Positions 7,375 to 34,390 of a stretch of DNA of 64,000 nt are shown here, in pieces. Source of the stretch: Eledone cirrhosa (taxonomy: Eukaryota); the NCBI GenBank assembly GCA_964016885.1, contig OZ024747.1, forward strand, positions 92,628,001 through 92,692,000. The letters run 5' to 3'. The position numbers and the translations under genes are program-made. The notes beneath the pieces were generated by a model that was given only the letters and a program-made list of their open reading frames with translations, ran no database searches and had not been told where the DNA came from. Every line of letters begins with the position of its first letter. Within the stretch, counting starts at the first letter, position 1.

Positions 7375-8141
7375 TCTTTTCATTCAAAGAATATAAAATT
7401 CCTGAATTTAAATCACAAACTAGCGCTATCAAAGACTGTTCCTGGGATGAGAGTGGATGATGTAGAACAGGTTTATCAAGGGCCGTAGTAAAGATAGAGG
7501 CAAAAGGAGGTAGGTCAAACTAGCCACCACTGTTATCAGCAGCAGTCGGAATGACCCGGTTTGTTCTCAACGTTTGTGGAGGTAGTAGTAATATGAAATA
7601 CGTCCTTTCACGCACAAGGCGCCAAGGTACGCATGTATTGTCCAACCAAGTGCCAGTGTGGTTCAATGGCGGGTTAATAAATTAACGAGCCAGAACAAAT
7701 ATAAACAAGGTTTAGTAAATAATGAAAAAGTTTCAAAATAAATTTAATAGTAGGTAAAGTCAATTTTTTAAAATTTATTTTGAAACTTTTTCATTATTTA
7801 CTAAACCTTGTTTATATTTGTTCTGGCTCGTTAATTTATTAACCCGCCATTGAACCACACTGGCACTTGGTTGGACAATACATGCGTACCTTGGCGCCTT
7901 GTGCGTGAAAGGACGTATTTCATATTACTACTACCTCCACAAACGTTGAGAACAAACCGGGTCATTCCGACTGCTGCTGATAACAGTGGTGGCTAGTTTG
8001 ACCTACCTCCTTTTGCCTCTATCTTTACTACGGCCCTTGATAAACCTGTTCTACATCATCCACTCTCATCCCAGGAACAGTCTTTGATAGCGCTAGTTTG
8101 TGATTTAAATTCAGGAATTTTATATTCTTTGAATGAAAAGA

Positions 8142-8225
8142 ACCTTCTGACGAGAATCTCTCTTTGCAACGAAGGCCGTATGGCCTACGTTTTATTTTTG
8201 GGATTCGAAACCGATCGGTAAAGGT
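8142..8225 (+). ncRNA. Type-I hammerhead ribozyme, GUA site
   Basis: acctt-CTGACGA(8147-53)-gaatc...gattc-GAAA-ccgatcgg-TA-aaggt. All three stems form; stem/loop III is palindromic. Confidence 0.88.
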
Positions 8226-8506
8226 AACTATAGTAGGTAAAGTCAATTTTTTAAAATTTATTTTGAAACTTTTTCATTATTTACTAAACCTTGTTTATAT
8301 ATATATATATATATATATATATATATATATATATATATATATATATATATGTATATATATATATATAAATATATATATATATATATATATATATATATAT
8401 ATATATGCACCCCCCCCCCCACACACACACACAGATATATATATATATATAAATGAAGAAAGAAGAGTGACACAGTTTGCTATACAATAAGGGCTTTAAT
8501 CACTTT

Positions 8507-8612
8507 GCTGACAATTGTTTCTCTGAACTGGTAGGTCTAAAGATCACTACCCGCCTGTTTTTGCGTCAATCGATCACCAATACATAGTTATAACCAGTCA
8601 ATTCATCAGAGC
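8507..8612 (-). ncRNA. Minimal type-I hammerhead ribozyme, GUC site
   Basis: Minus strand: gct-CTGATGA-at tgactggt...accagttca ga-GAAA-C aatt GTC-agc; ATTAAA downstream. Lies in a unique island 8453-9325 between (TA)n tracts. Confidence 0.75.
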
Positions 8613-9521
8613 TAGCGAGAATGAAGCGAATACACAGGCATGGCTTCTATATATAGTAGTGACATTCAATCAGAACAATAACAACAATACTAACAATGCT
8701 AGCAATAAATTAGTTGAAATAATCACAACATCAATATAAGTGAGACATACTTATGACTTTAGCATGTAAAACGAGCTGATATGAGGCAGATGTATGAAAT
8801 TGACATGTAAAAGCTGTCATGGGGTTTATTATATATAGTGTAGAGATAAGCCGGGGCTTTAAACAATGTACCATTTCCTTTACCGTAGGTTTGGTGACCG
8901 TAAGAATTATTTATCTGACAGATAAAATACTTTCATTGTAGTGAGAATAGTAATTTTTGTGGTGTGAAGAGGATTCAATATTTAAGTGGTCTATATTAGA
9001 TGAAGGGATTGTTAGTTCGAATCATGAGGTTGTTTAGCTTTCACATCATCAATAACATACATGTATAAGATAACATTAACAGAGTAGCAATATAATGGGT
9101 AAGTTAATACAGAGGTTAAGGAGGAATATTTATATATATATATATATAGAGAGAAAACATGGTGACTACAATTATAACAACAGGAATCACCGCGTATTCG
9201 CAACATCGCTATGGAAACGCCTAGTTGAGTCAAACTTAGCCAAGCGTTGATACCACCCACTACTCGGAGTACCCTAATTGGACTACACCTAAGTGGACTA
9301 CCTATAACAATAATCTGTTATCCCGTATATATATATATATATATATATATATATATATATATATATATATATATATATATACACACAAATAAATCCACCA
9401 ATTAATGGTAAGGTCTAAGCCGTATGAAGAACTCAATGTAATCTGTATGTAGAAGATGTCGTGAAGCAAAGTTTAAAATACAAAATTTCAATGATATAAT
9501 TCATTGGATACAGAATCAAAA

Positions 9522-9626
9522 ATACAAATAGTGAAAACAATGAAATTGAACAAAAAACGGTTAATTCATGATTTTTACTATGAATTAACCGTTTTTTGTT
9601 TAATTTCATTGTTTTCACTATTTGTA
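9522..9626. repeat. Inverted repeat, about 47-bp arms, abutting (TA)n
   Basis: tacaaatagtgaaaacaatgaaatt...ggttaattcat / atgaattaacc...ttttcactatttgta. Confidence 0.85.
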
Positions 9627-30803: not shown

Positions 30804-31123
30804 ATATATATATATATATATATATATATATATATATATATATATATATATATATATTTATTTACGTTTGTTGGTTCACCACTGGATAGAACTGGTCATT
30901 CCGTATGGTCAACCTCGATGTAATATTAGGGAGAGCACTCGACGTATTGCAACTCACCCGTCTTCGTTTGTGTTGCTGGTGGTGCGAGTACGGAGTTAAT
31001 TATTATAAAACAACATGAGGGCGGTTGACCGGGCTAGAAGCTGCTAAATGTTCGGCTGTCCTCTTGTCTCTGCTTTTCAGCCCCATGGATTTTGTCTATT
31101 ATATTCCTTTGTTATATTTCGAA

Positions 31124-31179
31124 TACCTGATGGTGTCACCGGATTCATACTGAACCCGGTCATTGAAATGATCATAGTA
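31124..31179 (+). ncRNA. Hammerhead variant (CTGATGG core), AUA site
   Basis: tac-CTGATGG-tgtcaccgg...ccggtcatt-GAAA-tgatca-TA-gta, then AATAAA. Lies in an island 30857-31226 between (TA)n tracts. Confidence 0.6.
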
Positions 31180-32455
31180 AAATAAACCTTTTAAGTAATT
31201 ACACCAGTCCAGCCTCCTGTTGTTTTATATATATATATATATATGCGTTTAGACAAAGGCATATATATATATATATATATATATGCCTTTGTCTAAACGC
31301 ATATATATATATATATTTATATATATATATATATATATATATATATATTTATATATATATGCGTTTAGACAAAGGCATATATATATATATATATATATAT
31401 ATATATATATATATATATATATATATATATATATATGCGTTTAGACAAAGGCTGAACATTTTAGAGGGGCTATGAAGTATCATGGCGATCATAGCTTTCC
31501 AGAAACTGTTAGCTGAGAAAATGGCTGAAATTTACTTCAACTGGAAATTGAAACCGTGCTGCAGATTTTGTTCTTGCCATTTGCTTGCACTCAAGGATTT
31601 TTTGACACATCTTATTGATTTTCAAGGTCGTCCAATAACATTGATTCTCAAGTCGTCTGTATAAGCGAGTAATATAATCTTTTCTCTCACCTTATTCAGA
31701 ACTCTCCATGAAATGTCAAACTTTCAAAATTGAAACTCATGTTTCAATATGTACACAGGGCAGAGTTTCATCTATATAATATATTGATTTGAAAAACTTC
31801 GATTAATTGAGATTATCGAATCAGTCAGTCGTAAAAACAGATCTATGAAATTAAATTTAATAAAGATGTCAGTGTGTCGTGTCTTTAAAGTCAACTGATG
31901 AAAACTATTGATAGATTCCAATCATATTAGAAAACTATCAATGTTTTCAACTCGGATATTACATAACCCTAGAATATGTGTATTTAGTATACGAATTGTT
32001 CACTTCAGATATTTTCCTTCGTCCATTTTGCCAAACAGGGGGTTTCGTTCTTATATAACATGACGCTGACATTTAGAGTAACCTTTCATAGCTACTAGAC
32101 TCTGAAAATAATAAATAGCCAATGGCTTGAGTTTCAAACATTACACATAACATAGTTGAAGAATTATGTTCCTTTGCAGACTTGAATACTAGTGCAGTGT
32201 GTGTTTTTTTTTAGTTTTTTTTTTTAGAAATATCAGTTGGTTTTTTTTTACGTTCTTTTCTTTTCTAAATCAAGTATGTCGTGGTATCGTCTTTTGTCAA
32301 TAATATTCTTTAGTAAAGCTGGAAAGGTAACTAGCTTCTTCAATGTCCATTGTGAAATCGCCGTGATATTTCTAATTTCATTTCTAATGTTACAGAGAGA
32401 GAGAGAGAAAGAGAGACGCAATCTCTCTCTCCCCTCTCTCTCTCTCTCTCTCTCT

Positions 32456-33266
32456 CTATATATATATATATATATATATATATATATATATATATATACA
32501 TATACATATATGTATATATAAATATATATATATGTATATATATGTATATATGTATATATGTATATATATATATATATGTATATATATATATATATACATG
32601 TGTATATATATATATGTATATATATGTATGTATATATGTGTATGTATATATATATGTATATATATATATATACATATATATGTATATATACATATATATA
32701 TATATATATATATATATATATATATATATATGTATATATATATATGTATATATATATATATATATACACACACATATATATATATGTATATATGTATATA
32801 TATATATATATATACACACATATATATATATGTATATATGTATATATATATATATATATATATATATATATATATATACACACACATATATATATATGTA
32901 TATATATATATATATATATATATATATATATATATATATATATATATACACACATATATATATATATATATATGTATATATGTATATATATATATACACA
33001 CACATATATATATATATACACACATATATATATATATATGTATATATGTATATGTATATATATATATATGTATATATATATATGTATATATATATATATA
33101 TACATATATATACATACATATATATGTATATATATATGTGTATATATATGTATATATATATATACATATGTATATACATATATATGTATATATATATAAA
33201 GGTTTACATATATATATATATATATATATATATATATATATATATATATATATATATATATATATA
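32456..33266. repeat. About 800-bp degenerate (TA)n field
   Basis: Read directly. Confidence 0.9.
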
Positions 33267-34390
33267 AGTCATAGATATATATGTGTTTTGCAACGGGTCA
33301 TTTTGTGGTTCAATGAAGAATTAATAAATTAAATAATCAGAGCTATATATCATAAAACATATCTATAGAATCACCAGATAAAATATATACCGTTTCCTCT
33401 CCCAATTAGCATAATTAACCATATAAAAAATCAATTAGACCAAGCTATAAGAATAAAGGCTCGTATGAAGAAATCTCCGACAAATAACCGAAAGCAGCCC
33501 CTTCGCGGCGGTAACCACGGAGTATTTATCGAATATTTCGACAGCATGTATAAATCGACCAGATATACAGTCAACTAAACAAAATTAGGTGTAAAATAAA
33601 CTAGAAGAAAAGTGTACATATTTAATTACCTCTACCATGGTTTCATCCGCATTTTAAGACATCCGATAACATAGGATATCTAGAGCTTCGGATTCTTCAG
33701 GAGTTAGCTCAAATTTAGACAATTAATTTTCCAAAGTGATCGCGCCAAGAATTCATTCAAAAATGGCTAAGAATCGTGACGTGGCAGCGGTCAAGTTAGA
33801 AAGGATGTCATTAGTTGCTTACGGCTGGTAGGCTTTTTGCTAGAAAGCGCAGCCAAATTGTATCTCAACCCAACGGGAGATTATTACATATAAAGGTTTA
33901 CATATATATATATGTAAAGTCATAGATATATATGTTTTGCAACGGGTCACTTTGTGGCTCAATGAAGAATTAATAAATTAAATAATCAGAGCTATATATC
34001 TTAAAACATGTCTATAGAATCACCAGATAAAATATATACCGTTTCCTCTCCCAATTAGCATAATTAACCATATAAAAAATCAATTAGATCAAGCTATAAG
34101 AATAAAGTAATTAAATATGTACACTTTTCTTCTAGTTTATTTTACACCTAATTTTGTTTAGTTGACTGTATATCTGGTCGATTTATACATGCTGTAGAAA
34201 TGTTCGATAAATACTCCGTGGTTACCGCCGCGAAGGGGCTGCTTTCGGTTATTTGTCGGAGATTTCTTCATAGGAGCCTTTATTCTTATAGCTTGGTCTA
34301 ATTGATTTTTTATATGGTTAATTATGCTAATTGGGAGAGGAAACGGTATATATTTTATTTGGTGATTCTATAGACATGTTTTATGATATA
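33195..34390. mobile_element. HHR-bearing element with about 650-nt monomer: partial tandem plus inverted arm
   Basis: 33195-33458 is repeated at 33889-34107; 34107-34390 is the reverse complement of 33345-33629. Confidence 0.8.
33630..33703 (-). ncRNA. Type-I hammerhead ribozyme, GUA site
   Basis: Minus strand: ctc-CTGAAGA-atccg...cggat-GAAA-C catg GTA-gag. Confidence 0.8.

Follow-up and report, generated by a model that had tools for sequence, protein, structure and literature searches.

The window analysed here is a 64,000-nucleotide (nt) stretch of the Eledone cirrhosa genome (contig OZ024747.1, positions 92,628,001 to 92,692,000 of the forward strand; source genome, 3.0 Gb), and it contains four families of hammerhead ribozyme-bearing insertions, termed A, B, C and D, whose inverted arms meet head-to-head. 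The ends of these arms were mapped on a common scale relative to the predicted ribozyme cut, with positions 3' of the cut taken as positive, both in the window and in further copies from the genome. The data directly showed paired fixed outer ends, scattered inner ends, joins at microhomology, read-through of the ribozyme, and an excess of ends at the cut in family A only. As a whole, these data are probably best explained by twin priming followed by joining of two complementary DNA (cDNA) ends, with a minority of family A cDNAs stopping at the cut.

First, the outer ends were examined. Each family has two fixed outer ends, at +80 and +188 in A, +289 and +394 in B, +119 and +162 in C, and 85 nt apart in D. 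The first sample of family A consisted of the 40 best-scoring of 1637 candidates and was skewed to long arms; score-ranked copy sets were kept out of the main statistics, since choosing copies by full query coverage skews the breakpoints. An unbiased sample was chosen by outer end, as the first 98 in genome order of the 246 exact +80 ends, and gave 161 arm ends; 17 of the 40 score-selected loci were also in this set and 81 of the 98 loci were newly fetched. Among unbiased A loci with an inverted partner, 63 of 65 had one outer end of each kind, as did 29/29 in the score-selected set, 8/8 loci in B, 20/24 in C (in the remaining four the alignment ends prematurely) and, between 29.8 and 30.8 kb, the two complete D palindromes. 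The longer arm in A was of either type (29 vs 30 of 59 loci), and arms diverged by 0.9% within a locus compared with 2.3% between loci (40 A loci). The outer-end rule is a sharp constraint for any mechanism. An inverted 5'-truncated copy with a tail at one end, as in Penelope-like elements (PLEs), was seen in A, B and C loci. Analysis of 58 A junctions showed that 28 had microhomology of 1-8 nt, 13 were blunt and 17 carried inserts of 1-9 nt. In a post hoc comparison, 9.2 A long-arm ends fell just short of the short-arm start site (phases +81 to +102) against 4.1 expected (p = 0.026), and about 9 long arms among the score-selected B copies halted at 283-317, near +289. Such stops look like the collision of two primers on one RNA.

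These features are likely to reflect twin priming from both target strands and subsequent joining of cDNA ends. A PLE protein would nick both strands of (TA)n, and from each nick cDNA synthesis would be primed at one or other internal start site, the template usually being a shared tandem or circular RNA, or RNAs transcribed from a single source locus. Synthesis would stop largely at random, normally after read-through of intact ribozyme sites, and the two cDNA ends would be joined by microhomology-mediated end joining to give the inversion. A nick at the hammerhead cut, or a ligation scar, would be present in a minority of templates, and solely in family A; at such a site the reverse transcriptase (RT) would run off (+1 to +10), or would cross the break and drop off within about 10 nt (-1 to -11).

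The inner ends of family A were next compared with a null model based on a length-dependent stopping rate (hazard fit), from which short arms of ≤30 nt and long arms of ≤20 nt were excluded. Ends within 10 nt of the cut numbered 20 of 161, 2.4-fold more than the 8.3 expected (p = 4e-4), and the other 141 lay elsewhere. The 81 newly fetched loci alone contributed 17 such ends against 6.9 expected (p = 8e-4). The two arm types both contributed to the excess (12 vs 5.6 and 8 vs 2.7 expected), as did the two sides of the bond (10.5 vs 4.0 expected at -10 to -1, and 9.5 vs 4.3 at +1 to +10). The peak was centred on the scissile bond, with 7.7 ends against 1.7 expected at ±2 nt, and the cut window was the top 20-nt window of the A monomer, so that a uniform distribution of breakpoints was rejected in this family (scan-corrected p = 0.019). 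The extra ends due to the peak amount to about 6-12 per 161 (4-8%). The RT stopped at the site in 20 of 208 encounters and passed it in 188, and 118 of the 161 arms run more than 10 nt beyond a cut. The influence of cleavage is accordingly limited to roughly one junction in ten or fewer, in one family. Secondary clusters of A ends were seen at phases 145-169 (short arms, 9 vs 3.9), where they overlap a predicted hairpin in the tail, and at phases 329-346 (all arms, 11.5 vs 5.3).

About half of the cluster at the A cut lies 1-11 nt past the bond, and run-off from a cleaved 5' end alone cannot yield these ends, which would require the RT to jump across a nick or to stall once past a ligation scar. 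Retroelement RTs are capable of end-to-end template jumping. A nicked or religated ribozyme site is, by a modest margin over its negation, the probable cause of the A peak, cleavage itself being predicted. If so, the peak may be genomic evidence that the hammerhead cuts RNA in vivo while that RNA is serving as template for retrotransposition, and that the RT gets across the nick or scar in about 9 of 10 encounters, although this further step is tentative. Such crossing would build tandem arrays and, together with the one-of-each rule, would give a single model for tandems, inversions and tails, namely a dimeric enzyme twin-priming one multimeric or circular RNA. Loci L068 and L175 are the two in the unbiased set that have both ends at the cut, and their arms are unusually divergent (14/482 and 4/68 differences), as if two separate RNAs had been joined.

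A real A peak could also arise without cleavage, if the RT pauses at the folded ribozyme (at stem I, then at the palindromic stem III, possibly dimerised) or if flanking palindromes favour joining. The cDNAs that end 5' of the bond had crossed it, as pausing predicts; ends at +5 to +11 lie directly 3' of stem I, other hairpin regions showed a 1.3- to 1.6-fold excess, and two short palindromes that flank the A cut could help joining. However, the sharpest excess was at the bond itself, and the bins of the more stable stem II were less enriched. Local fold energy did not predict A breakpoint density across 23 bins (rho 0.05), and neither did GC content. Most partner ends lie elsewhere, so the flanking palindromes cannot self-pair them. 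Pausing or palindrome-assisted joining is therefore regarded as the less likely cause of the peak, with perhaps a quarter of the weight.

The inversions themselves might arise from fold-back self-priming at palindromes, as proposed in PMC3846280, instead of from two primings. Three of 58 A junctions were exactly symmetric at short palindromes and 8 of 58 were symmetric within 10 nt, the window palindrome centred at 30708 is a case of this kind, and the similarity of arms within a locus would follow. However, 50 of the 58 junctions were asymmetric, and 11 of 59 loci had arms of which neither can be a copy of the other. Fold-back also leaves the one-of-each outer ends unexplained, since the longer arm can be either, and annealing at palindromes is equally expected of two identical cDNAs. 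Fold-back priming is unlikely on these grounds.

Several results weigh against twin priming with a minority of stops at a cleaved A site. Gene conversion between arms could be an alternative cause of their similarity. The lowest-energy fold of a single A motif was not a hammerhead, and the A and C motifs gave no match to Rfam RF00163, so that cleavage is a prediction; the family B motif scored 12 bits against a gathering threshold of 34. The ±2-nt window was picked post hoc, and the window from +1 to +17, prominent in the first A sample, failed in the new loci (8.5 vs 6.2, p = 0.28). A breakpoints were non-uniform even without the cut bin (p = 0.02), which means that other hot spots exist and that the Poisson null may overstate significance. 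In PMC11167929, cleavage was dispensable in vitro for an anole PLE and no RNA-seq reads ended at the cut, whereas a small excess of junctions at the predicted cut was seen here in one family.

The other families also count on this side. Family B was sampled as the first 20 of 1273 loci (28 ends; copy number is counted as exact ends, as for A) and family C as the first 30 of 102 matches (29 loci, 53 ends); both tables were read by hand, with the duplicate C locus L253 removed and complex arms reduced to a simpler form. Ends at the cut were not in excess in B (1/28 ends vs 0.81 expected) or in C (2/53 vs 3.5 expected). Score-selected B short arms (n = 22) had 2 ends at the cut against 0.72 expected, one of them being the window's own. 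Family D, the first 20 of 104 matches from mixed subfamilies, was judged roughly and without a formal test: about one of 20 short arms began within 10 nt of the cut and two near stem I/CUGA, with no evident excess. Most D short arms begin 65-143 nt 5' of the cut, and the D ribozyme and the short start site are separated by only 55-105 nt, a trivial reason for short arms to end near the ribozyme. An apparent pile-up of D arms at stem I proved to be a subfamily boundary. In D loci L301-L320, a TATA-like motif lies about 21-33 nt upstream of the points at which 8 of 20 short arms begin, 126-143 nt 5' of the cut; this cluster possibly reflects transcription initiation that defines the 5' end of the RNA, or a limit of the reference sequences.

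With an excess in one of three formally tested families, a scan-corrected p of 0.019 and an overdispersed background, the A peak could be a chance maximum in a set of several hot spots and families. However, its site was fixed beforehand by hammerhead topology, the excess held in the newly fetched loci and in both arm types, and the loci concerned have differing partner arms. We therefore consider chance improbable.

The initial annotation had held that inversion junctions lie at or next to the ribozyme, and that self-cleavage or the ribozyme fold sets, as a rule, where cDNA synthesis ends and switches template. Its four junction coordinates were exact. In family A, the long arm (L070; 7108-7745, minus strand; 1.3 monomers of 483 nt) runs from the start site at +188, joined to (TA)n, to an inner end at +34. 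It carries at 7291-7374 on the same strand a type I hammerhead motif, identified by direct reading of the sequence, with a 5-bp stem I, CUGACGA at 7369-7363, GAAA, a palindromic stem III and a predicted GUA cut at 7296/7295. The junction at 7746 is a single base belonging to neither arm. The short arm (7747-8297, plus strand) begins at +10, crosses the predicted cut at 8220/8221 and reaches the start site at +78/80, also joined to (TA)n; 7747 mirrors 7286, the 10th base 3' of the cut, and the base before it is a mismatch. The family B long arm (L110; 33236-34107, minus strand; 649-nt monomer) has its outer end at about +394, its inner end at +175 and a hammerhead at 33705-33628 with a predicted GUA cut at 33633/33632. 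The B short arm (34107-34392, plus strand) runs from +4 to the start site at +289; 34107 mirrors 33629, the 4th base after the cut, and is also the final base of the other arm (1-nt microhomology). In family C, one arm (L111; 10011-10321, minus strand) runs from the start site at +119 to +141, with a hammerhead core at 10169-10163, and the other (10321-10514, plus strand) begins with the C of CUGACGA at -32, with 1-nt microhomology, a predicted AUA cut at 10352/10353 and its outer end at +162. The symmetric family D palindrome (30510-30806) is centred at 30708/30709 and perfect over 92 nt; both arms begin at stem I (-57) with 2-4 nt of microhomology, and its outer ends are one long and one short.

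The cited ends at +10 in A and +4 in B are thus next to the cut, whereas those in C and D are at -32 and -57, and the partner ends of the same four junctions are at +34, +175, +141 and -57. The earlier distances mixed three reference points, took the nearer end of each junction and omitted two distant ribozyme-bearing head-to-head junctions in the window, both in family D. One is at 30186-30187 (-253/-224) in the insertion at 29797-30461 (L141), and the other, read by eye, is at about 10776-10798 (about -113/-17) in an insertion of a second D subfamily at 10532-10860. Two of 12 window junction ends lie within 10 nt of a cut.

As a rule, therefore, control of the cDNA end by the ribozyme is rejected. 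One end lies within 57 nt of the cut in each of the four cited junctions, and family A does show an excess, but the great majority of A ends lie elsewhere, most A arms run past a cut, B and C show no excess, and the CUGA/stem I window was not enriched in A (5 vs 6.6 expected) or C (4 vs 3.3 expected). The HDV-like (hepatitis delta virus-like) ribozyme of R2 is a precedent for a self-cleavage site that matches the DNA 5' junction (PMC3774820); an R2-like pattern, with most 5' ends at the cut, was not seen in A, B or C. A DNA record of ribozyme activity, which the initial annotation had also proposed, does not hold in general and is plausible as a minority effect in family A alone. Since B, C and D show no excess, the junctions at 34107, 10321 and 30708 are best read as ordinary truncation with microhomology; that at 30708 is a symmetric join at TA or ATAT microhomology, comparable with the exactly symmetric A junctions at short palindromes elsewhere in the monomer. 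Least probable of all are assembly artefacts or long-read chimeras: the window A arms are 100% identical across 530 nt, but the fixed outer-end rule is obeyed by dozens of loci with different junctions and the +80/(TA)n end was recovered from another sample, in 46 raw reads of run X10, in which no strand-change joint was seen, so that the inversion junctions themselves are unconfirmed in reads.

The four families are probably hammerhead-bearing non-autonomous Penelope-like derivatives, that is, non-LTR (non-long terminal repeat) retrozymes, mobilised in trans and inserted head-to-head in (TA)n, the site of nearly all copies. Families A, B and C consist of tandemly repeated non-coding monomers (483, 649 and 323 nt, respectively), with no open reading frame (ORF) of 120 aa inside their arms; A arms extend to about 9 monomers, and B and C form partial tandems. 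Family D, unlike these, is the 3' end of a longer element. Reading of the sequence showed CUGANGA, GAAA and NUH, arranged as in type I hammerheads and accompanied by stems I-III, in all four families, and the core was intact in 141 of 152 A copies, which were matched with a pattern itself requiring stem III. Stem/loop III is palindromic in A, B, C and D (10-, 8-, 6- and TA-type palindromes, respectively). Such a palindrome is a trait of dimer-acting metazoan hammerhead motifs, and hammerhead variants with a long stem II have been reported for PLEs (PMC4209133). An Rfam scan of the entire window gave hairpin and miRNA noise among the matches listed (150 of 363).

A broken ORF on the minus strand (51851-53752; in-frame stop near 53375) resembles an element with a Penelope-like RT and a GIY-YIG-type domain, and a D-like hammerhead lies downstream at 50869. 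It had no match in Pfam or PDB; its look-alikes in the Atlas scored 0.94-0.98, with HTH_animal, RVT_1 and GIY-YIG in 12-90% of members. From its sequence, this element is a candidate for the kind of partner that mobilises the families. The tails of A and B (window 7108-7216 and 33236-33344) are similar in motif and length, while the monomers are otherwise unalike. The common motif, with start sites spaced about 105-108 nt apart, gave an alignment score of 86 against 72 for the best of 500 shuffles, and this and the similar spacing suggest a single mobilising enzyme. Family A was also found at about 98% identity in a contig under another organism label (run X4, organism B), which means that it predates that split or moved between hosts. 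Some single-arm A copies were paired by identical start phase and length (L034/L221 and L212/L220), for which duplications or a common source are possible.

Further head-to-head palindromic insertions in (TA)n lie at window positions 870-988, 9667-9857, 10976-11169, 25709-25941 and 45783-45855; several of these five have one arm longer and a near-symmetric junction, and a complete hammerhead core was not found in them. Another dispersed family, the fifth, has a compact core resembling a hammerhead and occurs in direct orientation at 635, 1656 and 35395 (plus strand). Fragments that by eye resemble other retrotransposon ORFs lie at 4403-5101, 53701-54318 and 54631-55326, and one of them adjoins the PLE-like ORF.

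The element class and its architecture are already known. PLEs, in the passages of PMC8557442 and PMC3846280 at hand, form inverted truncated copies with a tail at one end and target (TA)n, and they share with the present families partial tandems, a head-to-head copy, a tail on one arm, microhomology joins and some palindromes at junctions. They differ in that A, B and C have no ORF and have tails of 44-108 nt, compared with the 30-40 nt quoted there; the one-of-each rule was counted here and is true whichever arm is longer, and those passages give no ribozyme-relative breakpoint map. Metazoan non-LTR retrozymes, in the passages of PMC7229834 and bioRxiv 10.64898/2026.07.22.740005 at hand, are likewise non-coding tandem monomers with a type I hammerhead, low GC content and a proposed PLE origin, with a circular RNA route via RtcB. 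Their quoted monomers are 150-450 nt, whereas monomers here reach 483 and 649 nt and are known from DNA alone, and inversions and fixed start sites are not described for retrozymes in those passages. In the literature outside subscription papers and supplements, we found neither a breakpoint map relative to PLE hammerheads nor a one-of-each count. A biochemical parallel is the PLE protein of anole Poseidon PAc (PMC11167929), which cuts and extends both strands of an AT-rich target and starts reverse transcription at two internal sites bounding the tail, in agreement with the paired start sites here. The role of hammerheads in PLEs was called unclear in PMC8557442. With hundreds to thousands of young copies in this genome, both that role and the origin of the inversions become countable. 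In LINE-1 twin priming, two target ends prime on the RNA and the resulting inversion is joined by microhomology. Overlap between the two LINE-1 parts is slight and their second site varies, whereas the present families have two fixed sites and extensively overlapping arms.

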